From the NCBI GenBank assembly GCA_000004985.1, contig GG738873.1: a stretch of DNA of 64,000 bases. One strand, written 5' to 3'. The DNA is from Naegleria gruberi. Lineage: Eukaryota. Every line of letters begins with the position of its first letter. The stretch's first letter is position 1. Below the pieces are notes generated by a model, which saw only the letters and a program-made list of their open reading frames with translations, had not been told where the DNA came from and searched no databases. This document shows positions 286 to 37,981 of the stretch, piece by piece. The position numbers were made by a program, and so were the translations under genes.

Positions 286-903
286 ATGGTTGAAGCTACA
301 TGTTTTGGATTATTGGCCAGCAATCCGAGGGTTTGTTCAGGTAATGGAAATTGTACATATTTAAACTTTTGTGATTGTCAAGACGGTTGGGATGGTAATC
401 AGTGTCAAGCCTTAACAGCAATTGATATTAGAGAAGTAATGTTTGGATTTTCAATTACTGGTCCAATATTAGCTGTTATTATTTCAATCTTACTGTGCAT
501 TCCCTTCATTATTTATATTAGGAGAAGGAAGAAGCAAGAGGAAGCAAGGAAATCAGCATCAGCTGCTGCTGGTAGTAATGTAGATACAAATTCCTCTTCC
601 GATAGAGTGATAAGGTTTAGTGGACGAGGAAAGAGTAATAGTAATGCAGGTGATGATATTCAACGATCGCCCACCCATGCCTATCTTAAACCTCATCCTT
701 TCACATTGGGTCGATCACACAGTGAGAGAACTGACCGATCTGATGATATACTTATTGGCAAATCAAAAAGTCCTCCTCCTTCAAGCATATCATCATTGGG
801 AAAGACAAGGAGAGAATTGAGTGGAAGCTTTTCTGAGCCTAAAACACCAAAGAGTCCAAAAGATACTTCCAACATACTGAACGATGAAATGAATCAAGTT
901 TAA
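286..903 (+). CDS. Single-pass membrane protein with one EGF-like module (204 aa); the 5' end may be incomplete
   Basis: ORF track 286..903 with ATG at 286. Cys pattern CSGNGNCTYLNFCDCQDGWDGNQC is EGF-like. A hydrophobic TM segment ITGPILAVIISILLCIPFIIYI is followed by stop-transfer RRRKK and a Ser/Pro-rich tail. There is no N-terminal signal peptide. An in-frame TAG that also reads as an AG acceptor lies just upstream, so an upstream signal-peptide exon beyond the window start cannot be excluded. Confidence 0.5.
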   Translation: MVEATCFGLLASNPRVCSGNGNCTYLNFCDCQDGWDGNQCQALTAIDIREVMFGFSITGPILAVIISILLCIPFIIYIRRRKKQEEARKSASAAAGSNVDTNSSSDRVIRFSGRGKSNSNAGDDIQRSPTHAYLKPHPFTLGRSHSERTDRSDDILIGKSKSPPPSSISSLGKTRRELSGSFSEPKTPKSPKDTSNILNDEMNQV

Positions 904-16113: not shown

Positions 16114-16740
16114 TTAGTCCATTATTTGATCTCCATCATAAAGTGGACGATACTTGTGCACTTGGCTATTCTTTCTTGTCACTACAATCCTCAAAATTCC
16201 ACACACAAATAAAGGTACACAACAACAAATTAACAAGGTACAAGCAACACCAACAAAACTCGAATAGTATAGCACTGAAAATTTGTACGTTTTCAATGCT
16301 GCTTGATCATCCTTTGGTTGTGTCGTGTTTAGCACACTGTCTAATTTACTGCCATATCCTCCTATTAAACAAGTCATGGCCATCAATGAGAGTAGTATTG
16401 AAAATGTCCACACATAGGCACAAATAGAAAAGTAACGTGTAGAATTTAATGAAGCTGTACAATCCACTACTGATACCATTCCAACAATACTCATCATTAG
16501 AAAGAATGACACGGCAACAAACTCAAAAACTAGCAACATGGTACCATACTGTTTGTCATTCAATTCTAATAATGTCTTTCCTTCCACAATTAAAACTATC
16601 AACGAAATCAAATATCCTAGAGAAGATAAAAACACAATCAAACAACCAACAAGCGTGCATAGTATGGATAGTGTTGTTGCTTTGTGTTTTGTGTTAATGC
16701 TACTTGTCGGAACGTTGAGCATTTTTTTAATGGTTATCAT
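16114..16740 (-). CDS. Four-pass small membrane protein, 208 aa (tetraspan-like topology, no CCG motif)
   Basis: ORF from ATG 16740. There are four predicted TM helices: LSILCTLVGCLIVFLSSLGYLISLIVLIV, MLLVFEFVAVSFFLMMSIVGMV, VWTFSILLSLMAMTCLIGGY and YSSFVGVACTLLICCCVPLFVCGIL. Confidence 0.5.
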   Translation of the reverse strand: MITIKKMLNVPTSSINTKHKATTLSILCTLVGCLIVFLSSLGYLISLIVLIVEGKTLLELNDKQYGTMLLVFEFVAVSFFLMMSIVGMVSVVDCTASLNSTRYFSICAYVWTFSILLSLMAMTCLIGGYGSKLDSVLNTTQPKDDQAALKTYKFSVLYYSSFVGVACTLLICCCVPLFVCGILRIVVTRKNSQVHKYRPLYDGDQIMD

Positions 16741-16787: not shown

Positions 16788-17535
16788 TTAATTCCATACA
16801 GCATAACTATTAACCATAACATTAGGATCTGCATCATCATCATCAAATTCTGGCATAACATTTGTTGTTGTTGCTGTAGATGAGGACATTTGATCATCAG
16901 AAGAATTCATCTTATCAAACAAGTCATTCATTGCATCTTGTAAATCATCTCTGTTGTGGGCATAATCATAAACAGAATACTTGCTACTTCTCATCTTCTT
17001 TCTTCTGTAATACCAAATACCAGCAACAACGAATACCAATACTGTAACTATTAAAATAATTGCAACTGCACCAGAAATTGCTCCAGCAAGAATGGTTGTA
17101 ATATTGGAGGATTCCATGTTAGGTAATAAAGTGGCATGGGCAACACACTTTTGAACTTTACAAGCAGCCACAATATTGTACAAATCTGTTTCAATGTTAA
17201 TGGTTGGCTTATTTAGAATTTGAGTACAAGTTACACTACTTTCCAACCTTAATGTGTAATTATGAGAGAACTTTTCAATAAATTGAGGGTAAGTGATTGG
17301 GAGAATAAAAGAGTTAGAATTACAAATGGCATCTCCATTGCTGTCCTTGATTGTGTAAGAGAGAGTGGCTTTCCAATCCTTATAATCTTGAGAGGACCAT
17401 TCAGAATAATCTAATTGAGAGAAACTGTGTGTAACCTTCATATCTAACTTCATATTTTCACCTTCTTTAAAGTCACAACGAGTAGATATATTTTTGGTTT
17501 CAAATGAATGTACCCAAGTTACTTCAGAATAAAGA
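16788..17535 (-). CDS. 3' fragment (about 249 codons) of a type-I membrane protein, very probably the C-terminus of the giant EGF/LamG gene interrupted by the scaffold gap. It holds an extracellular Cys-containing segment, a TM helix and an 85-aa cytoplasmic tail.
   Basis: The reading frame of ORF 16788..17453 stays open upstream all the way into the N run (..LYSEVTWVHSFETKNISTRCDFKEGENMKLD..). The internal ATG chosen by the ORF track is therefore not the start. The TM helix is ILAGAISGAVAIILIVTVLVFVVAGIWYY, followed by RRKK and an acidic tail. It shares strand and orientation with the giant ORF on the other side of the gap. Confidence 0.55.
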
Positions 17536-19157
17536 NNNNNNNNNNNNNNNNNNNNNNNNNNNNNNNNNNNNNNNNNNNNNNNNNNNNNNNNNNNNNNNNN
17601 NNNNNNNNNNNNNNNNNNNNNNNNNNNNNNNNNNNNNNNNNNNNNNNNNNNNNNNNNNNNNNNNNNNNNNNNNNNNNNNNNNNNNNNNNNNNNNNNNNNN
17701 NNNNNNNNNNNNNNNNNNNNNNNNNNNNNNNNNNNNNNNNNNNNNNNNNNNNNNNNNNNNNNNNNNNNNNNNNNNNNNNNNNNNNNNNNNNNNNNNNNNN
17801 NNNNNNNNNNNNNNNNNNNNNNNNNNNNNNNNNNNNNNNNNNNNNNNNNNNNNNNNNNNNNNNNNNNNNNNNNNNNNNNNNNNNNNNNNNNNNNNNNNNN
17901 NNNNNNNNNNNNNNNNNNNNNNNNNNNNNNNNNNNNNNNNNNNNNNNNNNNNNNNNNNNNNNNNNNNNNNNNNNNNNNNNNNNNNNNNNNNNNNNNNNNN
18001 NNNNNNNNNNNNNNNNNNNNNNNNNNNNNNNNNNNNNNNNNNNNNNNNNNNNNNNNNNNNNNNNNNNNNNNNNNNNNNNNNNNNNNNNNNNNNNNNNNNN
18101 NNNNNNNNNNNNNNNNNNNNNNNNNNNNNNNNNNNNNNNNNNNNNNNNNNNNNNNNNNNNNNNNNNNNNNNNNNNNNNNNNNNNNNNNNNNNNNNNNNNN
18201 NNNNNNNNNNNNNNNNNNNNNNNNNNNNNNNNNNNNNNNNNNNNNNNNNNNNNNNNNNNNNNNNNNNNNNNNNNNNNNNNNNNNNNNNNNNNNNNNNNNN
18301 NNNNNNNNNNNNNNNNNNNNNNNNNNNNNNNNNNNNNNNNNNNNNNNNNNNNNNNNNNNNNNNNNNNNNNNNNNNNNNNNNNNNNNNNNNNNNNNNNNNN
18401 NNNNNNNNNNNNNNNNNNNNNNNNNNNNNNNNNNNNNNNNNNNNNNNNNNNNNNNNNNNNNNNNNNNNNNNNNNNNNNNNNNNNNNNNNNNNNNNNNNNN
18501 NNNNNNNNNNNNNNNNNNNNNNNNNNNNNNNNNNNNNNNNNNNNNNNNNNNNNNNNNNNNNNNNNNNNNNNNNNNNNNNNNNNNNNNNNNNNNNNNNNNN
18601 NNNNNNNNNNNNNNNNNNNNNNNNNNNNNNNNNNNNNNNNNNNNNNNNNNNNNNNNNNNNNNNNNNNNNNNNNNNNNNNNNNNNNNNNNNNNNNNNNNNN
18701 NNNNNNNNNNNNNNNNNNNNNNNNNNNNNNNNNNNNNNNNNNNNNNNNNNNNNNNNNNNNNNNNNNNNNNNNNNNNNNNNNNNNNNNNNNNNNNNNNNNN
18801 NNNNNNNNNNNNNNNNNNNNNNNNNNNNNNNNNNNNNNNNNNNNNNNNNNNNNNNNNNNNNNNNNNNNNNNNNNNNNNNNNNNNNNNNNNNNNNNNNNNN
18901 NNNNNNNNNNNNNNNNNNNNNNNNNNNNNNNNNNNNNNNNNNNNNNNNNNNNNNNNNNNNNNNNNNNNNNNNNNNNNNNNNNNNNNNNNNNNNNNNNNNN
19001 NNNNNNNNNNNNNNNNNNNNNNNNNNNNNNNNNNNNNNNNNNNNNNNNNNNNNNNNNNNNNNNNNNNNNNNNNNNNNNNNNNNNNNNNNNNNNNNNNNNN
19101 NNNNNNNNNNNNNNNNNNNNNNNNNNNNNNNNNNNNNNNNNNNNNNNNNNNNNNNNN
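17536..19157. other. Assembly gap (1,622 N) inside the giant gene
   Basis: Uninterrupted run of n. Flanking sequence on both sides is coding in the minus orientation. Confidence 0.95.
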
Positions 19158-22100
19158 TTTCTTTTGGTAAATCCAATGTTTGATGCAGTCTTCTTGATTA
19201 CATTCAACTTGATGAATGTATTCTTAACTGTATTCACAAGGTAAATAATATCGTCAACTTTAACAATACTGATCTTGTCAGAGTATTCGGAAAATTGAGA
19301 AATACTTGATGGGTAATTAGCAATTTGTTCAAACTTCATAGAATCTGTCCATAGATTGGTTTTGGAATCTTGTTGAGTAACATTTGCAATAAAGATCTTT
19401 GTTCCTTGATCAGTAATGGTGGCAATCAATATCTTGATACCTGAGGCTTCAGTAGCAGAGATTAGCGCTCTAGCGTTAGAAACTGCGTCCTTGTTTGGGA
19501 ATTCAACAGTTGATATGATTCTAACTCTAGCATCGAAGAAAATAAGGGTTGGTGTTAAGGTATATCTATTACTAGCTGTAAAGACAATTGAAGTAGTATT
19601 ATCAACAACAATATTCAAATCCTTAACTGTTTCTCTGTTGAATGTATGATTGTACAATCGTTTGTTGTCGTATAGGGTTGTCTTGATAATACTGTTTCCT
19701 GAGATATCTCTAGCAGATAAGGATTCATAGAATTCAATAGTAGTAACTGTAAAATTATTTGTGTTAATGGTAATACCATACAAAACAGAGTCCATAATAA
19801 AGATCTTATCAATTTGGTCTGCTTCAGTAAGGCTTGAAAGGTATTTCCAGTTTGAAATTGAGTCAACAATATCCATTTGTGTATAAATTAAAACTGAGAA
19901 ATCATCATAATTAATTACTGTAAAGTAATAAGTCCCATCAAATATTGTTGGAGTAGTAGATTTGATAGGAGATGAAGGTAAACCCAACTCGGAAAGTTTT
20001 TGGGAAGATATGACCACCAAATTACTGCATGCTACATCCATTACAATAATGTCAACCGATTTGGAAGTAACTGAAACAGAATTGACTGTAATATTGGAGC
20101 AAGACTTACTGCTGTCAAAATATTCACAATTCTTGCCGGTAAATTCTTGCTCACAAGAGCAAACATTAGGGAAAACACATACACCATGAGTGCTACAAGC
20201 ATCAGCCAAAGTCTTGTTAAAGCAAACAGGAATGGAACAATTTTCTCCTCTATAATCAGGCCTGCAAACACAAACATCTTGTGAGATACAAGTACCGTGA
20301 GCCGAGCAATTATTTCTATTGGCACAATCAAAGTATGAAGTAATGTTACATTCAATACCCTCGAATCCATAGTCACAAGTGCAATTGTTTGGAGCAGCAC
20401 AATATCCTCTATTACAAGCGTCCTTACCATACTTTTCGTAACAAATAACATACTGACATTCTTCTCCAGTATAACCTTCAGAGCATTTGCAATTATTGTT
20501 AGAAATACAAGCACCCCTGCCACTGCAAACTTGGCTATTATTGACAGATAAACCATAACAAGTATACCAATTACATGTATCAAAATCGTTACAAGTACCC
20601 TTCTTGGCACATACGTTTGGATCAGTGGCTGGTAGTCCATAACAAACCGGTGTAGAACAATTGGTTCCGATATAACCATTGCATTTACAATTGTCTGGAT
20701 AGGTACAATTTCCGTGTCCATTACAAACATTGGTTTCATTAGCTGGAATGTTATAACAAATAGTAAATTCACATTTTGGACCTGTAAAACCTTCACTGCA
20801 TTGACAGGTATCTGGCAAAGAACAAATACCACGACCAGTACAAACATTTTGAGAGTCTGAAGCATTAAAACCATAACAAATTGGAATGGAACAATCTTTT
20901 CCAACATAAGTTGAAATGCATAAGCATAAATCTGTATCGTTACAAATACCATGCCCATAACAAACAGTTGAATCATTTGAAAGAATGTCGAAACAATTTG
21001 AAACTTCACAAGCTGAACCAATGTATCCATTTGAACAAGTGCAATGGTTTGCATAATCACAGGAACCGCGATTGGAACAATCAGTAATATTGTTGACAAT
21101 ACAAGTCCAGTTTTGACAATTATTTCCAAAGTAGTTTGTTTCACATTCACAAGTATTATTGCCAATACATTTTCCTCTGGAGCTACAAACATCTGTTTCA
21201 TTACTTTCCACACCAAAGCAATGGTAGTATTCACAAACATCTGGTGCAATACATTTTCCAATTCTTCCACAAACAGTACTTGTATTAGATACCACACCAT
21301 AACAATTGGTAAGGGAACAGTCTGGAGCAAAGTACCCAACCTCGCATGTACAATTATTAGGTGAACCACAAATACCTCTTCCACTGCAAACTTCTGTTTG
21401 GGTGGAATCAAAGCCAAAGCAAATAGGAAGGGAGCAGCTTTCTCCATCATAAATAGGATCGCAAACACAAGTATCCTTATCCACACATAAACCATGTCCA
21501 GAACAAACATTTGAATCATTTGAAAGAATGTTGAAACAAATGGAAACTTCACAAGCATTACCGACATGTCCTTCTTCACAAACACAGTGATTTGCATAAT
21601 CACAGGAACCGCGATTGGAACAATCAGTAATATTGTTGACAATACAAGTCCAGTTTTGACAATTATTTCCAAAGTAGTTTGTTTCACATTCACAAGTATT
21701 ATTGCCAATACATTTTCCTCTGGAGCTACAAACATCTGTTTCATTACTTTCCACACCAAAGCAATGGTAGTATTCACAAACATCTGGTGCAATACATTCA
21801 CCAATTCTTCCACAAACATCTGGGTGAGTCAAACGTAATCCACCACAAGTTATAATTGAACAATCGACACCATCGGTATTGTTGTTACAAATGCAGGTAT
21901 CAGGAGCAACACAAACACCCTTAGAGCTGCAAACTCGTATGTCTGAAGAATTGAGACCAAAACACATAGGAATAGAACACACACTTCCAGTGAATGTGGA
22001 ATTGCAGCTACAGGTGTCATGAGAAATACATTCACCATTGTTGCTACAAACACCAGATTGGTTGGATAACAAACCATAACAAATTGGAACTTCGCAGTTA

Positions 22101-25100
22101 GAACCATAATAACCGTCATTGCAAACACAAACATCTGGTTCAGAACACAATCCGCTTGAAGAACAAACTGTTTGCTTGTCTGATGGAATTCCGTGGCAGA
22201 CAGGATATTGACATTCAGGACCACTGTATTGTGAAGTGCAATTACAAACGTTAACAGCAACACAATGACCATGACTATGGCAAGTACTGGAACTGTTGGA
22301 TGAAATATTAAAGCACTTATGGAACTCACAGTCAGAACCATCGTGTTCATTATCGCAAGAACAAGTGCTTTCAAATTCACAAACTCCAAAGCCACTACAG
22401 ACCGTTGTGTCATTACCTCTTTTACCATTACAAAGAACAAGGAAAATATCAGGCAATGCTTCACCCAATGAGAATTCTAAACTATACAAGGAGCCATCCA
22501 ATTTGGCATCAGAAACACCTGGTTCCGAACCAATTGTGTTTTGTTTTCCCTTGTTGAACACAGTATTTCTTATCCTCCAATCATCTAGCAAAGTTGAGTT
22601 TACTAGTTTTCTAGTACCATCAACAAACAGGCTAGTACCATGGTTTGTGCTCTTAGAGACAGCAACGGTGTGAATATTATTTTCAAAGGTATGTGGTATG
22701 TTGATATGGGATTCTAGACCATCTGACAAATTGAAACTTAATATCAAAGTGTTATTTTTGTAAACTAATTTCCAATCGGCACCACAAGCAAAATTGAATA
22801 GTGTATGAGTTTTTGAAGGAGAACCATTCATTTTGAATGTAAGAGAAACGGTAAAATTGTTAGAAAACCATCTATCGAATGGTTGATAAACTCCAAGCTT
22901 ACCAAGCACATCAGCCTGTCTTATTGAAAGGGAGATATTTGAGGAGGTAGTCACTTCAGTGCCGTACCCATCAGTAGTGTTGTCGTAAGCCACTGCAACG
23001 ATATCATTGTCAGAACCATTTCCAAACACATATTTTCCTTCGACATATATTGACGAGTTGAAAATTATTGTCTTGTACATAGGTTCCTTTGCTGATAATT
23101 TACAGTCATCACCAAAATAAGGACTGGTACAAACACATGTGTCAACATCAATGCAAGCACCATGATTGGAACAAACTTTTGCTGTGTCGTTAGCATACGC
23201 ACCAAAGCATCTTGGAATTTCGCACCAAGTACCAATCCAATCTTTCTTAAGGTTAGGGTCTGTAGCGTTTGTAGGGTTACAAATGCAATTATCAAGGGAG
23301 TCACATTTTCCATGGGCACTGCAAACTTTTATCAGATCGGTATTTAGAATGTTATTACAAAAATGATATTCACATTTTTCACCAGTGTATCCAGTCTTGC
23401 AAAGACAAGTGTGATTATTAGTGCACTCACCATGTTTACTACAAGCAACGTCGTAGGTTTCATTATGGCATTTAGGCTTAGAACAGTAAAGATCTGTCCA
23501 CAAGTCTTCGCAAGTGCAGTTATTCTTATTATGACAAGTACCGTGACCATTACAAACGAATGTACTGTTGGTGTTCATTATATTATTACAAGTAAAGTCT
23601 TGGCAATACTCTCCATAATAATCGCTAAAGCAGTCACATTTGTTGTACTCAATGCATTTACCTCCTTCATCTTTCTTTTTAAACGAACATTGCACGTTAT
23701 TATCGGAAGAAAATGGAATTCCAAAACAAACAGGACCTTCTTGGTCATAACGGCTTTGTAAACTTTGAGGACTATTCTCAATAGAGATGGTGCTATTGAT
23801 AGTCAAAGAGCTAAGTACAGCAGCATCAAACCTCAGGTTGGATATGCTTCCCATAAAGTATGATTCCCTTGTACTTGGATTATAGCCAATCGCTGACATT
23901 ATATGAATATCAATAGTACGTCTCCAAGAGTAGGTTGTATCAGTGTCCACAAAGCAAGTAGAGAACTCATTGTTAAAACAAACTGAAAGTCCGTTACTGG
24001 TAGAATCTTTAGTGACAGAAACAAAGTAGTATCTATTATATTTCAATAAGTTGCTAACCGATCTAGTTGTGTATTGATCAGTTAGAGACAGTGTAAATCC
24101 ATCAATGGATTCAGTTGCAACTAGCTGCCAGTAGCTTGGAGATCCCATGTAAATAACTGTTTGGGAAGAATTTCCATCCTTCTTTTCTTTCTTCAGCCAC
24201 AAAGTAACGGTGAAATCGTTGTGGAAGAAAACCATGTTTGAATCATGGGCAATGTCAATCTTTGATGATGATCCATCAAAGTAAATACCACTTCTATTTG
24301 AGTTTAACCCATTTGTAGTAATACAATTTTCGCACTCCAATTCTTCGTTGCAATACTTGGATTTTAGACTGTCTGTTTCTTGAACGAGATGTCCTCTTAT
24401 GAATGTCGAATAACCTTGTGTAGTCAAGTTATTGAAATCATACACTTGACTTGTGGCAACCAAGCTGCAATCATCAGCAACATATCCCTTCTTACATTCA
24501 CAATTGTCTGTATATACACAAACACCATGTCCAGAACAAACGTCGGAAGACAATGTAGAAATACCGTAACAGGTAGTGTAGTCAGCAAAATCTTGAATGG
24601 CCTGTTTATCTGAAAAGCCTCCTGCAACAAGAGCAATGAACTTGAAGAAACCATTCAAGGAAGTAGAATTAACATTGTTAAAACCGAAATAAGTTTCTGT
24701 TACCGCTACTAGACTTGTAGTTGATGACAATCTTACAGATGGTAAACCATTGATATAAATGGTAACACCTCTCTGCTTTGACTTTACAAGCGTTACAACC
24801 ACAACAGAGTTGTCAGAAGGTACAACATTATTGTCTGTTTCCACTGTTTCAATTTCAGATTTGTTACTGTTCAAATAGCCAATATATCTAATCGAATTGA
24901 GTGGAGTCTTTTCCAAGAAGAAATTTGATGAGACTATTGGCTGGGCTTGGGTAGATGTATTATCAAATGAAAGTACTATTGTAAATGAAAATTCAGTTTT
25001 GATATTGAAAGGAGAGTTTAAATAAGGTGTAAAGTAGCTATTTTCTCCGTTAAATATAGCACCCTTGTTGTTTGTTATGGTTGCATTGTTGATTATCATT

Positions 25101-28100
25101 TGGAAGAGACTGTCTCGGTCAATTACTACTTTGTCCTCAAGGATTGCTTTTGGGTACCCTATTGGTTGGTCAGCAAGAGCAAAAACAATTCTGTCTCCAT
25201 CTCTTAGCGAAACAGAGGAAATAGACAATTTTGGTAATGTTGAAAGTAAATTACAGAATGGTGCACAGGACAGGGTTGGTGTTGAATTTGTGCTTGAAAA
25301 GAAATCTGATGCATTATCAGTTGTACAGACACCATCAGTAGTATTGCATGTGGTCTTACTTGAATCTACTTGACAATTGGATCCAACGTAAGGAGTTTTG
25401 CATTCACATTTATCTGGAGCAGAACAATATCCTTTACCTGAGCAAACTGTTTTTTCATCTTCAGCTGAAACACCAAAACACAACGGAGTTTGGCACTCTT
25501 CACCAGTGTAATTACCATTACAGACACATACATTTCCACCAAAGCAAACTCCATTATGGCTGCACACAGAACTTTCAAGTTGGGAAATTCCAAAACATGT
25601 AAACAAACTAGTATCCACCCCAGAATAGTTGATTGGATCTATTCTGATAAGGATGAGAGATTCTAAAGTTCCGTTCAAATAAATAGGCAAGTCATTCACC
25701 AAGTCATAACCCACAAAGCTTTCACTTGTCAAAGAAGGATTTAAGGCTAGGAATTCTGGAACACCTCCAAAGAGTCCAAGAGGATTACCGTTTACCAGAA
25801 CAGTTGTCACGTAACTTTTAACAACATTTACATGGTACAGTAAACCAGTGTATGGAATGGCATCCTCTACGGTTAAGGTAATTGGCGATAGAGATGTTTC
25901 ACTAATTCCTTGGATAACAAGAGAAGACCCATCCAAAAAGACTTTCCAGTAGCCTCCATCTTTGAGACTTATGATTGGTTGGATTCCTCCCAAAGATTGA
26001 AGTCTAATATCAAAAGACAAACTAAAGTCATCAGAAAACAAGGTCAAAGGAGACGGATCTTCCAAAATATCGAAGATGACAGATGATTTACCAAATTGTA
26101 AATAACCATTGTTATCAAAAGAAGGATTCTCCACCATTAGGTTAACATGATAAGCTAAATCAAGCAATATTCCGTACATAGGGGCATTAATATCGAAAGA
26201 GTGTGTCAAATTCGAATTTACCACCAATGAGGTATTGTAAGAGATGAACTTGGAGTGTGGTGTATAAACCAAACGATAGTATGGATTTTCTTCCAATGTG
26301 GTTGTTTGGGTAGTCTTAATTTTTTCAATGTAAGAGTTGTCAACTTGACAGTTATTGCCGGAATACCCTACTTTACATTTACAAAAGTCTGGTTTAGTAC
26401 AAGTTCCCTTTCCAGAGCAAACATTCTTATCTTGTGATTGAACTTTGAAACATATTGGGTACTTGCAGTTAGTTCCATAATAACCAACTTTACAAGTGTT
26501 AACAGTGGTATTGACCACACTTGGCTTTGCAGTTGGGTTTGTCGATAATCCACAAAACATGGCTTCAGCGGTAGTTTTTGTATTGTTACAATCAATACCA
26601 ACCTCTATCGTTCCATTGTTAGTCTTATTCAAGTAGTTACTTGGATCATCTAGAGTACAATTAGGATTTCCTTTACATAGAGTGTTTGTAACATCAATAG
26701 AACAGTTTGCTCCAATAAATCCAGGATTACAGGCACATGTATCAGGTGCCTCACAAAGTCCTTTACCAGAACAAACTCTCTTATCATCCGAAGCAATACC
26801 AAAACAAACTGGAGTAGAGCATTTAGAGCCAGTATAATTAGAATTACAGGAACAAACATCCAAACCATAACATTTACCATGGCCATTACAAACTGATGGT
26901 TCAAGTAAAAATGTACCATCACAAGTAAATGCTCTATCAAGTATGTCAGTTGGTGATTGTGGTGTTGAAGCAACAACTATCTTACGTATTTGACCCATAA
27001 AATGTGATTCCTTTCCATCCACAAAGTTATAGCCTATTCTTGCACCCATATCTTTACCTGCCATTGTATTCTTATAGTCTCTACTGAATACAGAGGTGAA
27101 AACTTCCTTATTATTTACAACAACAGATGTACCACTTATGGACGATTTGGTGATTAATATAGAGTAGGGCACATGTTCTACCTCTATTACATATGGAATT
27201 GATATTACTTCAGGTTTTATCAACTCTTTGGTATTACCTTCAATAAACAACACACGGTCAAGCAAGTAAATGTTAAAAGCTGCAACATCAGAAACGAAAA
27301 GTATAGGACTAATTGCTTCGAAACTGTCAATTGTCAGATCTATGTAAATAACGAAATCGTTGATGAATGGGACAAACAGTTTTGAGGTTGGGATGTCCAT
27401 TTTTGCAAGTTTGGGAACAATATAGCTGGCACTATCCACGGACAAGCCTGAAATTTGAACAGTTGTTGAATTTCTAAGTTCAACTAAATTACCAGTTTCG
27501 TCTAAATAAGCTTTGTGAAGCATAAACCTGATGTACGGAATTGTATTATTGCTACTGTCAGGAAGATTAGTTTTTGTAAGGTTATTTGCGGTTAAGTTGT
27601 TGTTTGTAAAGTTACTACTTGTAACATTGTCAAATGTGAAATTGCCCCTACTATTTGTATAGTTATTATATGTGAAATTACCAATTGTAATATTATTGCT
27701 TGTAAAGTTACTAATTGTAAAGTTACTAATTGTAATGTTATCACTCGTAAGGTTACGGATTGTTAAATTAGTATATGTGAAATTACCAATTGTAATGTTA
27801 TCACTTGTAAAGTTACTATTTGTAAAGTTACCAATTGTAATATTATCACTCGTAAGGTTAGTGTTTGTAAAGTTACTGCTTGTTGAATTAGTATATGTGT
27901 AATTACCAATTGTAATATTATCACTTGTAAAGTTACTATTTGTAAAGTTACTGATCGTTAAATTAGTATATGTGTAATTACCACTTGTGGTATTCTCATA
28001 TGTAAAATTATAATAGGTAAAATTGTTGAGTGTCAAATTCGGTATTTCCGTAATTCTCATCACCTCGTTTTCTGGATAATTTGCATCATTTTGGCAATTT

Positions 28101-31100
28101 TGTCCCGTAATAGAATTTCTAAAACATTTACAAAAATCAGGCTTGGTACAATTACCATTTCCACTGCAAACAAGTGGATCTTCTGATTTAACACCAAAAC
28201 AAATTGGTAAAGAACAATTTGATCCATAATATCCTTCTCTGCAAGTGGTTACATTTAAGAGACCTGTTGCATTCTTCTTGGAGCAAAGATACAAATTATC
28301 ACCTGTTGGGTTTGTACAATCAATTTCAAGATCAAGAGTTCCATTAATCTTTGTATTATTACATTTACCTTCAGGATTGGTACATGTCGCCATACTAACA
28401 TTTGTTTGACACTGTGTGCCAATAAAACCAACTTTGCAAGAACATTGATTTGGTTTCTCACAATAACCATTTCCTGAACAAACCTTAGAAAAAGTGGCAG
28501 GAATATTAAAACAAACTGGAATATTGCAGATTGAACCAATGTAAGTGACATTACAGATACAATTATCATAACCAACACATTTACCATTACCACTACAAAC
28601 TTTTGGTGAGGTCATAGATATATTTGCACAGGTGAAAGATTTGTCATTCTTTGGAGGATATTGCGGATCTTCAATAGGTGGAAGATTATCATTGAGTGCA
28701 ATTTCAATCAAATCTAAAGTTCCTGAAAATCCAATAGTGGATCCATCATCCAAAATATCAAAACCAATGTAGCTGTCTCTATTTTGATTCAATGTATCAA
28801 TATAATCATAACTGAAAACACTATTATAACAACGTTTGTTGTTGATGTATACTTGTGTCCCCATTGATTTTGATTTCATTATGAATACATCATAAACCTG
28901 ACCTATTAACTCAATTTCATTTGGTACAGAGATTATATAAGGAAGAGGAGAATCTAAAATACTGGCCTTAATAACCAATGTCGTTCCTGTCAAATAAATA
29001 TTGAAAGAGGCACCACTTTGTATGTTCATGATAGGATTGTATGATTTAAACTCTGTTGGTGAAATTGAGAATGAAACGTAAAAGTTGTTGGTAAATAAGT
29101 AAAGAATTGAAATGACATTGTTGGTATTCAATATTATTTGAGTTCCATCTTTGAATGAAATTATGTTATCTTGATCAATTACCAAATTCTTTACAAGTAC
29201 CTTCATTTCACTTCCAAGCTCTTCAATATACATATTACCATCAATGTCTGGTTCACTTATATAAAGAGGATCAATAACAAGTCTAAAACTAGTAAGGTTT
29301 TGTTTCAATTCATTTTGTAAATTAGTAATATTTTGTAGTAATTCAATATTTACACCACAATCTAATCTTGTAAATGTTGAATTAAAACATTTACAAAAAT
29401 CAGGCTTGATACAATTACCATTTCCACTGCAAACAAGTGGATCTTCTGATTTAACACCAAAACAAATTGGTAAAGAACAATTTGATCCATAATATCCTTC
29501 TCTGCAAGTGGTTACATTTAAGAGACCTGTTGCATTCTTCTTGGAGCAAAGATACAAATTATCACCTGTTGGGTTTGTACAATCAATTTCAAGATCAAGA
29601 GGTGTATTAATAGTTGTACAGTTACCTTCAGGATCCATACATGTTGTCATAGAAAGGTCTGTTTGACATTGTGTACCAATAAAACCAACTTTGCAAGAAC
29701 ATTGATTTGGTTTCTCACAATAACCATTTCCTGAACAAACGTTAGGTAAAGTTGCCGGGACAGTAAAACAAACTGGTATGTCGCAATATTTACCAATATA
29801 AATCCCATTACATTCACACAAATCATTACCATAACATTTTCCATTGCTATTACATGCTTTTGGTGATGTCAAGTAAATACCATTACAAGAGTAAGCAAGT
29901 TGGTCGTTCACAATTGCTAATATTTGTGAGTAATTATTACTACCTATTTTGGACATTTGGATATCATCAATAGTGCCAGAAAATGTGATTTTGTTACCAT
30001 CTTTAAAATCAATACCAACATAACTATTGGCAGTTTTGTTAGAAAGTGAGGTCAAAAAGCTGTAACTGAAAACACTATTGTACTCCTCATGTCCATTAAT
30101 ATAAACTTGAGTTCCGTCTTCAAATGATTTCATAATCAAAACAGAATATTCAATGTTAGTGAATTCAATACCATTAGGAACTAGCTGTACTATTGGATAG
30201 GGGAATTCTACAGTCAAGCCTTCAATGGCTAAAGTTGTGCCCATCAAGTAAATACTGAAGCAGGCCCCACTAGTAATATTCATTATTGGATTGTAGTCTT
30301 TGAATTCAGTAACCACAATCTTGAAGGAAATGTAAAAATCATTGGTGTACGTGTATAAGGGAGAAATAGTATTGTATGTACTGATGATTAAACCACTTCC
30401 GTTTTCGAAAGAAATTGTACCATTAGAGACAACAATGTCAACAACGGTAATCTTTAAAGATCCACCCAATTCCTCTAGCACAGCAGTGTCTGTATCAACA
30501 GCGAGCAATTTTCTTCGAGTACTAAACTTTTGACTGCCAGAGCTTGGATAAGTGGTATTTTTTACAAATGTTGGGCTAACTTTTAATCTAAAACTATAGT
30601 CAGGATATTCTGTTCTCATGTTGTACTGGATTTTAATCAACTCTTTAATGTATTCGTTATCAACACCACAATCTCTTCTAGAGAACGTTGAGTTATAACA
30701 ACGACAATAATCAGGTTTTGTACAATTACCATTTCCATTGCAAACAAGTGGATCTTCTGATTTAACACCAAAACAAATTGGTAAAGAACAATTTGATCCA
30801 TAATATCCTCGTGGGCAAGGGTTACCGGGCAATAAAGGTAACGCAACAGATTTACCACCACAAAGATAAATTTCTGTATCAGTTTGTGGATTGGAACAAT
30901 CGTATTCGTTAATATATTTTCGAGTTCTAAAATACTTTGTTGGGTCATTTGCAAAACAATCACCATTTACGTCTGTGCAAGTTGTTGCACTTAGATCTGT
31001 TTGGCATTGTTCACCAGCATATCCAACCTTGCAAGCACAAAAACCTGGTTTCTCACAGTGTCCATTTCCAGAGCAAACCTGAGAACAGTCAGCGGAAATA

Positions 31101-34100
31101 CCAAAGCAGACTGGAATATCACAATTTGATCCTGTGAAGTTTCTGTTGCATTCACAAACGTTATTACCATAGCATTTACCATTAGAATTACAAACTTGAG
31201 GGGATGTCAAGTAAATTCCTGCACAGAAGTGTCCCTTATTCTCTCTGAGTAAATTAGCTACTTCAACCGAGGATAATCCGAGGTTGCTGCCGATTTGAAT
31301 ATCATCAATATAGCCATTTAAACTTATTTTATGGCCTTCCTTAATGTCAAATCCAATAAAACTATCAGCATTTTGTTGGGGTAAAGTAACAACAAAGTCA
31401 TAGCTAAATGGAGTAGAATACCTCAATACCCCATTAACAAATACTTGAGTACCTGTGCTAGTTGATTTGGTTATTAATATTGAATATATCTGATTTTCAA
31501 CTTCAACTTCTCCATGAACAGAAATAATGAACGGGGAAAGTTCAATTGTATGGCCTTCAAAAACCAATGTGGTTCCAATTAGATATATGCTAAATGAAGC
31601 CCCACTAGTAATGTTCATGATAGGATTGTAATCAGTAAATTCTTCAATTATCAATTTGAAAGATATATAGTAGTCATTAGTAAATAGATATAAAGGGGTA
31701 ATGTTTGTCTTTGTGTGCATTATGACCTCAGTACCATTACGGAAAGAAATTGAATTATTATTCAAAACAAGGTTATTGATTTGGATAGTCATATTACCGC
31801 CCAGTTCTTGCAAATATTTCTTGTCAGCAGTAGTGAACATAAAGTCCGAACTAAGTTTAAGTCTGAAAGAATAGTTGGTATCGTTGGCCTTCAAAAGTTG
31901 TTGAATAGTGTATAATTCTTGTAAAAAGGTAGCATTATTACCACAGTTTTGTCCGCTTATGGAGGATTCAAAACATTTGCAAAAATCAGGCTTAGTACAA
32001 TTACCATTTCCATTGCAAACAAGTGGATCTTCTGATTTAACACCAAAACAAATTGGTAAGGAACAATTTGATCCATAATATCCTTCTCTACAAATACTGA
32101 CATTGCTAAAAACAGGAGATCCAACCAACATTGTTTGCCCACAAGCATAAATGTCTTGACTATTTTTGCAATCAGGTGAGCTGGAGGTAAAATTCAAGCC
32201 CTTACTTGCAATGTAATTAGTGGCATTGTTGGAAGCACAATTACCCTCTGGATCTGTACATGTTGACTTAATTAGTTCAGTTTGGCATTTAGACCCTACA
32301 AACCCAACATTACACTCACAGATGTTTGGCTTTATACAAACACCATGTCCTGAACATACACCGGCATCATTGCTAACTATATTGAAACACATTGGAAGAG
32401 AACAAGAAAGTCCTGAATAGTTAGAGTTACATATACAAACATCAAAGCCGTTACAAACACCATTTCCGTTACATACTTTTGTCGAATTCATGTGAATTCC
32501 GTTACACTTGAAAGCACCTCCAATTGCAGCAATATTGGTAATTTCAGACTCTTGCATTCCGTAAACTCCAAAAATCATGAGCTCGTCTATGTAACCATGA
32601 GAAGGAGAAAAACCAACAGAACTGTAGGTGTTTTGAGATTCGTTCACAGAAATGTAATCATCATAGTGTTCAAATATATAATCTGGAGTAGACTTTCCAT
32701 CCAAGTACACTCTGGTACCTAAAGAGCTTGATTTAACAACCAAAATCTTGTACCATTTGTCTAAAGTTTCAATCATCGGTGTCAACAGCGTTTGCTCTTG
32801 CACCAAATTTGTCTGGGTTCCATTTATATATAGTTTAGTTCCTTGTAAGTAAAGGAACCAGTTAGCAAGATTGTTGATTGAAATAATATGTTTAACAGTA
32901 TTGTCTATACTGGTAAGGTAAATCTTGAAAGATATTGCAAAGTCATTCACTGTCCTTCTTGTTAAAGCACAAGGAACATTTGAATCTAACATTGATTTAT
33001 CATTTGCTGCAAGTTGATGAAGAGAAGTGTTTGTTTGTGAGGAAATTGCAAAACCCATAGAATAGGTTTCTTGTCCACAGGTGGACAGCTCTTCATAGGC
33101 AGCATTTGTATAGTTTGAATCAATTTGACAGTTGTGACCATGGAAGCCAGAATAACATAAACAAAAATTCTTATATTTACAACTTCCATGCCCACTACAA
33201 ACATTATGATCTTCCTGTTTAACTCCAAAACACATTGGCTTGCATCTATAGGTAACATTAGGGTCTTGATAATAGCCTTCTTCACATACTGTGATATTAT
33301 AAGTTGTATTTGCTGTTATGTGAGCATCAAGAATTAGCTGTTTACAAGCTGCACTGGGAGCGACAGAGGATAAACATTCTTGAACTGTTTGATCTACAAC
33401 AGTATCAGGTTTTACAAAGCCATTTGGAAACTCAATTGGATTATAAGCTCCAGTTTCGTTTATCACACTTAGGTTGTTATGGATAAAAAACGCTTGAGGA
33501 TCTACACTATCCACAGCAGTTCCATTTTCATTGTGAACATATAAAATTGCATTATTGATTTGACACTCCAATCCTGTGAAAGAAAGGTCACATTTGCATT
33601 CATCGGTACTATGACAATCACCATGGCCTGAACAAACAGAAACGTTAGTTGCCGAGACGTTGTGGCAAAAAGGAACTTGGCAATTATTACCTTCACTATA
33701 AACACACTCACATAAATCTCTACCTAAACATAATCCTTTTCCTGAACAAACAATTGGACTATCATATCTAATACCATTACAATACCAAAGAGAAGATATT
33801 TCTTCAGTCATATTATAGGAAAACCAAAGAAGTTCAATATAGCCTTCCAATGCCAAGTCGCCAACATAACTTTCACCCTTAGTGTTGGTAACAAGATCCT
33901 CAGTAATGGTAGTGTCATTAAAAATGACATTACTATCAATAGAAATAGTTAAACCTCGTTCTGATGATTTGGTAATTTGAAATTCGTATAAATGATTTGG
34001 TAAAATGAGAGAAAGGCCTAATATAATAGTTTTTGATTTGAGTGATCCTTGCTTAGTTTCAAATATTAAATCATTTCCATTAGTAGAAAGTTTCCAACCG

Positions 34101-37100
34101 GCAATGTTATTCAAGTCTAGCAAAGTTTGGTTTCCATCTAAGGTGAAAAATAACACCCTAACAGTAACTTGGAAATTATTGTAGAGAATGATATATGGTG
34201 AGTTAGTGTTACCACTTGCCAGTGTTGCCCTCAAGCAGCCCTTATTATCACTAGCCGATTGATAGTCTTTCAAATTGTACATTGCATCCAATCCTCGAAC
34301 CTCAGCACCTAACATATATTTGTTGTCGAATATATTACGCAAGCTGAACGATTCTCCGTATGTTGCGATTATGGATTCAAAAATAGTGTCTTTGATTGCG
34401 CAATTGGACCCACTGTATCCAAAATCACAAGTACAGTTATTAAGACCATCACATTGTCCGTGACCACTACAAACTTCAGAAGTGTTGCTACCTATTCCGA
34501 AACATGTTGTATTTTCGCATTTATCTCCAGAGTAACCATCTTTACATTCACACAAGCTTTCACCGATGCAAATGCCTCTATTGTTGCAAACTGTTGGGTT
34601 TTTATCTCCATGGCAACCCACAGCACTATAAAAACCTTTTTTGAGGTGATAATCCTGATAGTCAAAAAAGGCAATAGCAACATTGTCTACAAGTCCATTA
34701 AGGTAACTGTCACCTCTGATACTCATACCAATAGTAGAACTCTGTGTTTGGTTTTGTCTTTTGTTAAACTTTGAGGTAAAAGTAGAATTAATATACACGT
34801 CTGTTGTATTAGCAACAAGCTTCAACCCTTGAGACGAGCTTTTCACAAGGGCCAAATAGAAAGGATAAGTGCTGACACTATATTGTGAGACAATTACTGA
34901 GTCGTCATATAATTTTAGTTTCAAAATGTTGTCAGTGTCAACAAATAATTCCCATGTTGTATCATCATCGTTGAACACAATGGTTTGGCGAGAACCTAAT
35001 ACATTCATCTTAAGCCAAAAGGCAACAGAAAAATCATTCGAAAGGCTAGTGAACATGGAGTATCCTGAGAATACAGAGTAGGATTGGCCAGAAAGGAGCA
35101 AAGCACTCCCCCCACCAGGTAAAAAACTGTTGGTGTAGCTTGCATTGTAAAACACAGAAGTGAAGTTGTAATTCTTGTCTAAAAAGTACATTCTATTTGG
35201 GCCAGTTGAGATAGGATTATTAAAATCATAAAAAGTAATTTTAGATGGTGATCTTTGGGTTTCCTTTAGATACTTCAAATAAAAATCAGTTCTGGCAAAA
35301 GAGAAGGCACAAACAGAAAATTCTGCAGTAAGAAAATCTCCAACAGATTGACAAGGTACGGGGTCATTGGATGAGGAAGGCAATGTGCCACCTAGTGAGT
35401 AACCAGAACTAGATTGGCTATCATCGAATTGTTGAGAGCAACCACCCTGTAAGTTTAGTGGACAAATTGGCTTGGAACCATTCAAGTCCAACTCCAACAG
35501 TTTTTCACATTCTAAACCTTCATAGTTAGGGTTACAAGTACAATTATCGTAGTTAACACATTTACCTCTACCACTGCAAACATCAGAGCTGTTGCCATTA
35601 ATTCCGAAACAAGTGTATATGGGGAAATCGCAAACTGTAGCATGATATGGTTCAGAGCATCTGCACTCATCAGAACCAATACAAATACCATTGTAATTAC
35701 AGTACTTATCAGCTTCCATTTGTTCTATTCCTTGACATTGCCATTCTCGTTCAATATCTCTCAACACAATGGATGAAGAATTGAATTTCCAAATTATTAA
35801 CCTGTCCAGAACACCTTCGAAGAAATTACCTTTTGTTTGAGGGTTGACCCCAATTGTGGAGTTATCTGCCTCAATACTCGGATCTACCAATTTGTGAAAA
35901 TCTTCGACTCTTTTATAATCATAAATTGCAATTTTACCATTGACTTCAATCGTTAAGCCATCCAAAGAGCTCTTCTTGATGTAAATATCATAATCGCCAA
36001 TTTCATCATTTTTTGGAGGTATTGACTCAGATTTGTGAGTAATAATTTGTACCTGTGCATTATTTGCATTGTGGTTTGTTGATTGGAAAATAAACTCCCT
36101 CTTATTGGACATTAATAATCTCCAGTATGAACCATCAGAAACATGGATTATTTCGTGATATATTGTTTCAATAAATTGTGCCACCGTAGAAGATCTAATT
36201 TTAAGGTTCAACACAAAATTATTTCTTAAATGTCTGAAAGGAGAGTTATTGCCGGATATGTCAATGAAATTTTTTCCGTCTAGTTTGAGAAAACCACCAA
36301 TATCACTTTGCACATCTCCAACCATAGAAAAATTACAATTACCTCTTAATTCTCCCAAAGAATCGTTGTAAGGCAAGTATTTGCGATTGAACATCCACTT
36401 GAGAGTATAACTATCTCCAAATATTGTTTGGTTAACTGTAGTTGGGATGAGCAAGAAACTACAATTGTTACCATAATGGAGATTGTCACAGAGGCATGAA
36501 TCTGTGTCAACACAAGTACCAAATCCAGAGCAAACCGCTTGTTGGGTAGATTGTATTCCAAAACAAGTTGAAATTGAACAATCAGGTCCAAGGTATTGTG
36601 GAAGACATTCACACAAGTACTCCCCAACACATTCACCTCCTCTACACAAATCTGGGTTATTAACAAACAAAGAATTATGGCAACCATGACCTTTCCATTT
36701 CATCTTCGTTAGCAAACGGTTAATTGAGAGGTTATCAACCCCAGCATAAAAGAAAGCATAAAATTCATCAAGATATCCATGAAATTGACCAGACATAGAA
36801 TTTAAATCATAACCAATAGAGCTTCTTTGAGAATTAGAGGAACTGGGTCTAGTATTTGACGAAAAGGAACCAGTTATATCTACCCTTTGCAAACATTGTT
36901 TTCCATCGATGTAAATACGTAATCCAGTAACAGAAGATTTGGAAATAAAAACATGGCTAAAAGAGCTAGTTAGTTTCTCGACAGTGTCAAAACAACGTGA
37001 ACCACAAATTTCAACTCCATCAACGTTGACACAAAGCTCAGGACTTCCTTCTAACAGTTTAAGAATAAGGTTCCATTTTGTTACTGTATAGTTTACAGAT

Positions 37101-37981
37101 AAAATAAACTGATCTGTTGACAAATAAGATGTATCTGACAATTGTAACCAAAAACTCAATGTAAAGTTATTTTTCAGTTCAATAAATGGTGTTCTATCTA
37201 GAAGGATGTAGCTTTGGTCGGTTAAACCAAATTTGAAAGATCTTCCTTTTTTTACCACGTTAGACTCCAAATCAATACCATTTGATGCTAGTTGGAGTGG
37301 TTTGGTTTTTTCTCTAACGAACTGAACTCCTCCAATATTGGTAAGGTTGTCAAAATTAAAATACATTTCATAATCAGCATCTACATCATAGCTGATATCG
37401 TCTTGTAATTCTGTACATTGAGGATTGCTAAGTATTTCACTTGTTGTTGAACAAATAGGTGATTGGTAAGAGTATTGAGATGTCCCTAAAGTTGCGATTA
37501 CGCTTGAACTAGAGGAAGACAAAGGGCAATTGCCTAGTAAATCTTTTTGGCAAGTACTTGCAGTCGATTGCAGAAGAGACTCACAAAACACACCTGAAAA
37601 GCCAGGATTGCACTGACAAATTTCAGGACCAATACAAACACCATTGCCACTGCAAACACCGGGAGCACCTTCAGACATTCCACCACATACAATAGTTTCG
37701 CAATTTGTATTGGCGAAGCCTGGGGAACAACTACATAAATCTTCACCAATACAAACACCGTTACCGGAGCAGGCATTAACAAGATCCGATGAATGAACAC
37801 CAAAACAACTGAAGGAGCTAACTTGGCATGTACAATAAATCAAGAAAAGAAAGACTATAAATACAAATCTTATTGCACAAATATTTCTAGTAGATAAAAA
37901 GCGGAATAGATGTGGTGTTGTTGGGCAAAGATCATCACCCTTGGCACCACAACAAAAACCTGTATTCCTCATATCATTCAT
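19158..37981 (-). CDS. Giant extracellular adhesion-type protein. It has a signal peptide and dozens of EGF-like modules alternating with ConA/LamG-like modules of about 200 aa. About 6,270 codons are resolved in one uninterrupted exon upstream of the gap, and the gene continues through the gap to 16788.
   Basis: ORF track 17519..38071 (minus) is open for 20 kb. The probable start ATG is at 37981 (MNDMRNTGFCCGAKGDDLCP..). The signal-anchor/signal peptide is ICAIRFVFIVFLFLIYCTCQVSS. Dozens of C-x-S/N-G-x-G-x-C...C-x-C-x-x-G(F/Y)-x-G-x-x-C modules are present, for example CSGNGVCIGPEICQCNPGFSGVFCE and CSGHGQCDGLNNCTCDFGYSGSNC. Interspersed non-Cys modules of about 180-220 aa carry F..SFWL.. and ..Y(I/V)(D/N)G.. 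motifs typical of ConA-like/LamG/pentraxin folds. NxS/T sequons are very dense. No stop occurs for 18.8 kb, so no intron is needed. Confidence 0.75.
21050..21820. repeat. Recent tandem duplication (unit about 543 bp, about 226 bp near-identical) inside the giant CDS, duplicating a pair of EGF-like modules
   Basis: ORF-track plus-strand antisense ORFs 21044..21364 and 21566..21838 contain an identical 77-aa run (IITGTAIGTISNIVDNTSPVLTIISKVVCFTFTSIIANTF..NIWCNTF). On the coding strand this is the repeated segment CGRIG(E/K)CIAPDVCEYYHCFGVESNETDVCSSRGKCIGNNTCECETNYFGNNCQNWTCIVNNITDCSNRGSCDYANHC. Confidence 0.8.
27560..28040. repeat. Coding minisatellite (21-63-nt units) inside the giant CDS encoding an array of N-glycosylation sequons
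   Basis: DNA units such as gtaaagttactaattgtaatgttatcact repeat many times. The translation (minus strand) is ..NFTYTNLTISNFTNSNFTSDNITIGNYTYTNSTSSNFTNTNLTSDNITIGNFTNSNFTSDNITIGNFTYTNLTIRNLTSDNITISNFTISNFTSNNITIGNFTYNNYT.. Confidence 0.8.
28131..32100. repeat. Four tandem repeat units of about 1.26-1.31 kb inside the giant CDS, each encoding one LamG-like + 3xEGF-like module. Cores of about 210 bp are near-identical between units.
   Basis: Core sequence caaaaatcaggcttggtacaattaccatttccactgcaaacaagtggatcttctgatttaacaccaaaacaaattggtaaagaacaatttgatccataatatcc.. recurs at about 28131, 29394, 30704 and 31981. The protein-level repeat is CNGIYLTSP(K/Q)ACNSNGKCYGN..CREGYYGSNCSLPICFGVKSEDPLVC(S/N)GNGNC. 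More diverged units flank the array at about 26.3 kb and 33.1 kb. Confidence 0.8.

Follow-up and report, generated by a model that had tools for sequence, protein, structure and literature searches.

The 64,000-nt stretch of Naegleria gruberi DNA analysed here (the window; GenBank contig GG738873.1) carries on its minus strand an exceptionally long reading frame that is interrupted by a scaffold gap and encodes alternating EGF and LamG-type modules. Before the gap, the frame extends from 38071 up to 19158, next to the run of N, without a single stop (6,304 codons); its first ATG lies at 37981, leaving 6,274 codons between the ATG and the gap. Given the local composition, 0.071 stops per codon would be expected, and the log10 probability of the frame being open by chance is about -202. 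After the gap, which is the only run of N in the window, a minus-strand frame of 248 codons starts at 17534 and ends at the stop in 16788-16790. The initial annotation had placed one gene, split by the gap, at 16788-37981, and both the coordinates and the absence of stops up to the gap were confirmed. The features of the locus are collected in Table 1.

Table 1. Features of the giant gene and the scaffold gap (amino acids, aa, counted from the ATG at 37981; TM, transmembrane)
Feature	Position in the window	Strand	Remarks
Whole proposed gene, ATG to stop, unsequenced gap included	16788..37981	-	NAEGRDRAFT_58267 with a 5' extension
Start codon and N-terminal signal-type segment, aa 1-57	37811..37981	-	Kyte-Doolittle scan
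EGF pairs/triplets alternating with 13 LamG_3-type modules, aa 59-5183	22433..37807	-	
LamG_3 module 1	36656..37441	-	PF13385 E=2e-8, 35.0 bits, above cut-off
LamG-type module 2	35711..36373	-	matches 13-module profile
LamG_3 module 3	34592..35332	-	best PF13385 stretch, aa 969-1103 (whole-protein scan)
LamG-type module 4	33755..34423	-	13-module profile; weak Toxin_R_bind_N match, E=0.017
LamG_3 module 5	32477..32989	-	PF13385 E=3.3e-8, 34.2 bits
LamG_3 module 6 (super-repeat unit A)	31196..31969	-	PF13385 E=3.2e-5, 24.6 bits, below cut-off
LamG-type module 7 (unit B)	29858..30697	-	no Pfam match of its own; hhalign
LamG-type module 8 (unit C)	28601..29386	-	hhalign
LamG-type module 9 (unit D)	26897..27571	-	hhalign
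LamG-type module 10 (unit E)	25571..26377	-	hhalign
LamG-type module 11	24545..25276	-	hhalign
LamG_3 module 12	23702..24496	-	PF13385 E=1.8e-6, 28.6 bits
LamG_3 module 13	22406..23131	-	PF13385 E=2.5e-5, 24.9 bits, below cut-off
Five tandem super-repeat units A-E, aa 1826-4128	25598..32506	-	each EGF-EGF, Cys-rich linker, EGF, LamG
Pentapeptide sequon repeat in unit D	27527..28039	-	15-nt period
Uninterrupted EGF array, aa 5184-5952	20126..22432	-	18 six-Cys EGFs and a few truncated ones; EGF_TEN 297 bits
Cys-poor, beta-rich pre-gap tail, aa 5953-6274	19160..20125	-	no Pfam match
GT..AG "intron" of the public model, ~2 kb	17412..19440	-	contains the whole run of N
Scaffold gap, 1,622 N (size estimated)	17536..19157		probably mostly filled by the EFC35267.1 contig
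Overlap of post-gap contig end and EFC35267.1 C-terminus	17436..17528	-	27/31 aa identical
Membrane-proximal ectodomain segment, 147 aa	17094..17534	-	post-gap frame
Single TM helix, ILAGAISGAVAIILIVTVLVFVVAGIWYY	17007..17093	-	Kyte-Doolittle maximum 3.03
Cytoplasmic tail, 72 aa	16791..17006	-	opens with RRKK, acidic cluster EFDDDDAD, ends ...NSYAVWN
Stop codon	16788..16790	-	end of post-gap frame

The public gene model and the scaffold gap

In public databases the locus already figures as NAEGRDRAFT_58267 (EFC43502.1, XP_002676246.1, UniProt D2VHZ3), an uncharacterised "predicted protein" of 5,396 aa from N. gruberi NEG-M, which was found by an exhaustive HMMER search with the pre-gap tail and then mapped onto the window. 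This model is identical to aa 992-6180 of the open frame (5,189 residues, from 35008 to 19442), resumes at 17411 and ends at the same stop, its last 207 aa being identical to the post-gap frame. Its start Met (MNVLGSRQ...) at 35008 corresponds to aa 992 and lies inside LamG module 3. All 991 codons upstream of this position are open (log10 P = -32), and they encode the leader, six EGFs, LamG modules 1 and 2 and part of module 3. The public model is wrongly truncated at its 5' end. Its intron removes open codons on either side of the gap (94 before, 41 after), and for comparison a genuine intron nearby measures 193 nt; the annotated intron is an artefact that spans the scaffold gap.

When homologues were first searched with the C-terminal piece, a single match was obtained, EFC35267.1 (XP_002668011.1, P0001), a "predicted protein, partial" of 366 aa encoded by an orphan contig of 1,276 bp. 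The post-gap frame begins with the sequence in which this protein ends (...SFETKNISTRCDFKEGENMKLDMK); in the alignment, the final 31 residues of EFC35267.1 are paired with residues 3-33 of the frame. The four mismatches correspond to TWVH in the window and NLGT in EFC35267.1, and a shift to the adjacent frame yields NLGT at the same place of the window; they are therefore attributed to single-base indels in A/T runs, typical of low-quality contig ends. From this frame switching, about the first 40 nt of the window after the gap are probably erroneous. EFC35267.1 carries the frame 335 aa upstream of 17534, into the gap, and the orphan contig would cover about 1,176 of the nominal 1,622 nt. This overlap makes the gap the most likely place of the orphan contig, and the frame would continue across the remaining ~450 nt. 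The resolved residues amount to about 6,855 (6,274 before the gap, 335 from EFC35267.1 and 246 after the gap), and a continuous protein, if the gap is bridged, would have about 7,000 aa. No Pfam domain was detected in EFC35267.1 by a Pfam scan, and a word-index search with it returned no homologue other than itself.

Alternatively, two genes could meet at this place, with a giant secreted EGF/LamG protein ending in the gap and a separate membrane protein starting there, for example at the Met with which the EFC35267.1 model opens, to supply the TM helix and the tail. The join across 17536-19157 is not sequenced, the gap length of 1,622 nt is an estimate, so that frame continuity is not computable, and same-strand neighbours can be closely spaced in this region. 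However, a hydropathy scan of EFC35267.1 revealed no hydrophobic leader, yet an ectodomain of about 480 aa would precede the TM helix and its RRKK flank. Moreover, the frames are open to both edges of the gap, 94 codons past the donor of the public model (P ~1e-3) and 41 before its acceptor, and the public model likewise joins both sides. Two separate genes are consequently considered quite improbable. The single gene of the initial annotation, against which an independent 3' gene with a signal peptide of its own would have spoken, is supported by this join, by the 335-aa extension of the post-gap frame and by the lack of such a peptide in EFC35267.1.

Compared with the public model, which represents the same locus, the gene described here includes the first 991 aa, the gap region and the 335 aa of the EFC35267.1 contig. 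What is new is the corrected N-terminus with its predicted signal peptide, the identification of the intron as an artefact, the placement of the orphan contig and the map of the modules. In a literature search, the accessions of this locus were not found to be cited, and nothing relevant on Naegleria EGF/LamG proteins was retrieved. One of the largest N. gruberi genes has thus been deposited without its signal peptide and first 991 residues and with a fake intron, while about 335 residues of its protein are listed apart from it, as a "partial protein" of an orphan contig. Proteomic, secretome and domain-census studies that use the public model misclassify the protein as non-secreted.

Modules and layout of the predicted protein

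Exactly two hydrophobic segments are present in all the resolved sequence, the N-terminal leader and the TM helix encoded after the gap. In the Kyte-Doolittle scan, aa 29-60 formed the only segment reaching at least 1.8 in the 6,274 pre-gap residues, with a hydrophobic core (FVFIVFLFLIY) and small residues ahead of the first EGF, and the leader would be cleaved as a signal peptide. The TM helix at 17007-17093, followed by the 72-aa tail, agrees with the single helix and cytoplasmic tail initially annotated after the gap. A Pfam scan of the tail gave no known domain, only spurious matches driven by the TM helix. The leader, the ectodomain rich in Cys and sequons, the lone TM helix flanked according to the positive-inside rule and the short tail together give the predicted layout of a type-I membrane protein.

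From the N- to the C-terminus, the leader is followed by four [2 EGF - LamG] units, by [EGF-EGF - Cys-rich linker - EGF - LamG] blocks and by further EGF/LamG alternation up to aa 5183, and then by the EGF array, the Cys-poor tail, the gap, the 147-aa ectodomain piece, the TM helix and the cytoplasmic tail. A pattern scan identified 50 regular six-Cys EGF units (C-x-C-x-C-x-CxC-x-C). The EGF families scored far above their Pfam cut-offs (EGF_2, PF07974, 143 + 243 bits; EGF_Teneurin, PF23106, 138 + 259 bits; EGF_TEN, PF25024, 203 + 297 bits), and EGF_CA (PF07645) was not listed at E<=0.01 in the scans of either protein half. Within the uninterrupted EGF array, an internal duplication of 300 nt at 83% identity was found.

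The Cys-poor stretches between the EGFs define 13 modules of about 170-280 aa, which in an alignment share the motifs NDF..SF, W.L, Y.V.I.KS..G..VY.NG and S.IG...G.ID, and an invariant Cys after each of them opens the next EGF. When the modules were scanned singly and within the whole protein against PF13385 (Laminin_G_3; gathering score 27.6 bits), six of the 13 matched directly (1, 3, 5, 6, 12 and 13), the best single-module value (E=8.8e-12) most likely belonging to module 3. Five modules gave weak matches to Toxin_R_bind_N, which is another ConA-like fold. Modules 7-11 were aligned by hhalign with modules 1, 2, 3, 5, 12 and 13 with a probability of 98.6% (E=1.3e-15). A profile built from all 13 modules recovered the 13 of them at E values from 5e-42 to 8.7e-82, which is circular, and matched nothing else in the protein. 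By these alignments, all 13 modules are homologous.

The 13-module profile also matched PDB entry 4qvs, a bacterial S-layer domain protein (E=4.8e-6), while a profile of modules 7-11 found no match in the PDB. The modules are predicted to adopt a beta-sandwich jelly-roll fold. Laminin_G_1/2 (PF00054/PF02210) was not found by Pfam even at E<=1 per module. The signal-type N-terminus and the EGF/LamG alternation of the initial annotation are hence supported by hydropathy, Pfam, the module alignment and hhalign. Its modules of about 200 aa, for which Pfam typing had been suggested, belong to Laminin_G_3 (PF13385) and not to PF00054/PF02210, and its EGFs are of the EGF_2/teneurin type.

Five of the blocks form a tandem super-repeat (units A-E), with 419-569 aa per unit, pairwise identities of 34-55% and a period of about 1,260-1,340 nt. 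Neighbouring units also share one DNA stretch (246 nt, 96% identity), which together with the tandem arrangement suggests that the array grew by unequal crossing-over or conversion. Such internal repeats of up to 96% DNA identity, in the vicinity of a gap and with indel differences at the contig end, could also be expected if collapsed or chimeric repeats had produced an artificially long frame, or if the locus were a decaying pseudogene. Against this, 6,304 codons are free of stops at a stop probability of 0.071 per codon, the domain boundaries are regular, with the invariant Cys after every LamG, and most modules are only 14-55% identical to one another and therefore are not collapsed copies. 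An assembly artefact or pseudogene is regarded as extremely improbable.

Unit D contains, in addition, a sequon repeat of 26 x-N-[F/I/L/Y]-T-x pentads in perfect register, followed by a two-residue slip and five further pentads, with a total of 32 sequons in 171 aa. Its match to Pentapeptide_4 was weak (17.2 bits, E=0.0054, cut-off 38). The pentads resemble the A(D/N)(L/F)XX motif of the pentapeptide-repeat (Rfr-type) beta-helix family. The repeat could form a glycan "bottle-brush" spacer or a glycosylated beta-helix. The high sequon density described initially was borne out over the protein, with 185 N-glycosylation sequons observed vs 103.5 +/- 8.8 in residue shuffles, and the enrichment persisted without the tandem repeat (153 vs 93.5 +/- 8.4). 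The protein would be heavily N-glycosylated.

The region between the EGF array and the membrane, made up of the pre-gap tail, EFC35267.1 and the post-gap ectodomain, constitutes a stalk of about 800 resolved aa, or about 1,000 aa with the part in the gap. A Pfam scan assigned none of its pieces to a family. The exhaustive HMMER search, carried out with the pre-gap tail only, returned the protein's own model and one marginal DUF7035/DUF7743 protein; this match (E=4.6e-4) covers residues 32-106 of the tail and involves beta-sandwich repeats of a prokaryote-like protein.

Considering gene and protein structure together, it is likely that the locus is one intron-less N. gruberi gene of about 21 kb whose product is a single type-I membrane glycoprotein with about 7,000 residues. 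In such a protein, about 50 six-Cys EGFs of the non-calcium-binding EGF_2/teneurin type would form a long rod, along which 13 homologous LamG_3 modules with a ConA-like jelly roll would be placed, each flanked by EGFs. Five EGF/LamG blocks in tandem would have arisen by unequal crossing-over. The 31-unit N-x-T pentapeptide spacer would be followed by the EGF-only array of about 770 aa, and a lineage-specific, beta-rich stalk of about 1,000 aa, partly in the gap, would precede the TM helix and the acidic 72-aa tail.

Several points weigh against this reading. A stop codon is possible in two unseen pieces, the remaining ~450 nt of the nominal gap and the 178 nt that precede the annotated Met on the orphan contig, and the overlap between the contigs was established at the protein level alone, over 31 residues. 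The n-region of the leader is unusually long (about 37 aa). Modules 7-11 were assigned solely by profile-profile homology, with no Pfam match when scanned singly. Single-sequence AlphaFold2 models of the stalk were all-beta and unusable, with predicted local distance difference test (pLDDT) values of 38 for the pre-gap tail and 31 for EFC35267.1. Finally, no orthologue that could confirm the C-terminal arrangement was found in the word-index searches, the exhaustive search with the tail or the metagenome scans.

Relatives, comparison with known proteins and possible function

When the C-terminal pieces, the first 1,500 aa and EFC35267.1 served as queries in word-index searches, the only matches besides EFC35267.1 were relatives at the level of the EGFs, a weak negative result. 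The same type of search missed the 5,396-aa public model despite queries 100% identical to its parts, whereas the exhaustive search returned it; therefore, very long orthologues may have been overlooked. Scans of JGI metagenome contigs and of IMG/VR gave no relatives. The best matches of the N-terminal 1,500 aa shared EGF arrays only, with 24-49% identity over 4-24% of the query. Among the relatives by EGF are other EGF membrane proteins of N. gruberi and N. lovaniensis, none of which matches the 13-module LamG profile. Naegleria EGF-array proteins such as P0005 (RGS + EGF, 2,075 aa), P0010 (kinase + EGF + NHL, 2,331 aa) and P0013 from N. lovaniensis have the same EGF_2/teneurin-type repeats, but share with the giant protein only these EGFs (30-46% identity over 4-10% of the query).

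Extracellular EGFs alternating with LamG-fold modules are known from Crumbs, Eyes shut (EYS), neurexins, the membrane-proximal part of FAT and domain V of perlecan. Like Crumbs and the neurexins, the giant protein would be type I, with one TM helix and a short tail. In contrast to these animal proteins, it has Laminin_G_3 instead of Laminin_G_1/2, and neither EGF_CA nor cadherin or other companion domains. Its tail has no ERLI/PDZ-type end or FERM-binding site, unlike the Crumbs/EYS/neurexin class. It is also 3-5 times larger than the Crumbs, EYS, neurexin, FAT and perlecan comparators. Laminin_G_3/ConA-like lectin proteins such as 4qvs contain the same module family, although the domain is usually single there, or attached to an enzyme or S-layer protein, and not repeated 13 times between EGFs.

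Teneurins combine a type-II orientation with NHL, a YD shell and a toxin-like domain; tenascins have FN3 repeats and a fibrinogen globe. The initial annotation had called the protein teneurin/tenascin/FAT-like. As regards the EGF modules this description holds, and they score best with the teneurin-type models (EGF_TEN, EGF_Teneurin). It does not extend to the rest of the protein, which would be type I and in Pfam scans has no NHL, YD-repeat or Tox-GHH domains, unlike teneurins, no FN3 or fibrinogen family, unlike tenascins, and no cadherin match, unlike FAT and the protocadherins.

The nearest architecture is that of the animal EGF-LamG proteins, and the giant protein represents a very large addition to the general class of EGF/LamG surface proteins. 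Database and PDB searches detected no sequence relationship to the animal proteins beyond generic EGF. The simplest explanation of the resemblance is that domains were shuffled independently, the giant protein having been put together from LamG_3 modules within Heterolobosea. The protein illustrates no new principle, being of an ordinary kind and remarkable mainly for its size.

An EGF rod gains about 2.5-3 nm in length with each module, and a LamG domain spans some 4-5 nm. With these dimensions, the chain could stand out from the amoeba surface by about 0.2 micrometre, well past the depth of an ordinary glycocalyx. There is roughly an even chance that the protein, projecting this far with multiple lectin-like LamG faces for carbohydrate or protein ligands, acts as an adhesion or recognition receptor, a proposal drawn from its sequence features. 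The ligands might lie on the substrate, on prey bacteria or on other cells. A C-terminal Y-x-x-hydrophobic motif in the tail (Y-A-V-W), together with the acidic cluster, would suggest a role in trafficking instead of enzymatic signalling. Should the protein be a surface receptor, it would be a candidate mediator of attachment to, or recognition of, prey or substrate in a free-living amoeboflagellate, and an example of a convergent EGF-LamG architecture outside animals.

The extreme length, the sequon enrichment with its 31-sequon spacer and the absence of a recognisable signalling domain in the tail would also fit a mainly structural product of the same gene, such as a component of the glycocalyx, cyst wall or extracellular matrix, possibly shed, that forms a protective, heavily glycosylated coat. 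EGF arrays occur in surface-appendage proteins too, and a weak PDB match to a tubular mastigoneme protein was found. However, 13 conserved lectin-fold LamG_3 modules are more typical of binding proteins, and a mainly structural role is considered possible, though rather doubtful. The present data do not separate the receptor from the structural coat, and both may hold together. A bolder version of the receptor proposal, in which the protein would be an independent heterolobosean invention of the animal-type EGF rod with LamG folds, still expanding, restricted to N. gruberi and equipped with a glycan-decorated beta-helix spacer for the recognition of prey, substrate or self, is thought unlikely as a whole.

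Introns, neighbouring genes and other reading frames

The initial annotation had presented the absence of introns as notable. In the window, however, an intron-less gene is not exceptional, because three of the four neighbours that could be verified, EFC43501, EFC43421 and EFC43422 (N. gruberi NEG-M, 461,873-bp scaffold), are exact, single, uninterrupted open reading frames (ORFs). The fourth, EFC43423 at 11262-13050 (+), includes the ORF 11262-12089 and has one intron of 193 nt (12048-12240). Most other large ORFs of the window are likewise uninterrupted. Fritz-Laylin et al. (2010) reportedly found introns in only about a third of N. gruberi genes.

EFC43423 is named "Novel toxin 11 domain-containing protein" in UniRef. 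Its exons were also found as separate protein calls, identical to N. gruberi, in ENA metagenome contigs; some public metagenome assemblies therefore contain N. gruberi-like DNA.

The GC content is uniform (0.32-0.38) across the window, except for the bins with the run of N, and the neighbours belong to typical Naegleria families; a viral or laterally transferred origin was rejected on these grounds. Five paralogous genes, in which an RCC1-like propeller is combined with Kelch repeats, adjoin the giant gene, at 38658-40973 (+), 41455-43086 (-), 52656-55130 (-), 56081-58750 (-) and 59589-61796 (+), and this cluster looks like a local tandem expansion.

Within the EGF array, in the +1 frame relative to the giant ORF, an alternative ORF of 592 codons is open at 20041-21819 (-). 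Shuffles of the main-frame codons predict 7.5 stops there, vs 25-37 in equal windows elsewhere in the gene, and its openness is thus largely a by-product of the codon composition of the EGFs. The longest open run in 2,000 codon shuffles was 522 codons. The ORF is slightly more open than expected. Its translation is nonsense rich in V, L, I and F, and a hidden overlapping gene was rejected, the ORF being judged mostly compositional.

An ORF of 208 aa at 16114-16740 (-), with four hydrophobic stretches by eye, starts 47 nt downstream of the stop of the giant gene, a spacing unusually tight for a 3' end and a promoter. Its exact translation is absent from the protein collection, and it may be unannotated or modelled differently. 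At the edge of the window, an ORF of 205 aa at 286-900 (+) gave a weak match to the teneurin-type EGF (E ~6e-4) and, on this match, may be another small EGF-containing gene or exon.

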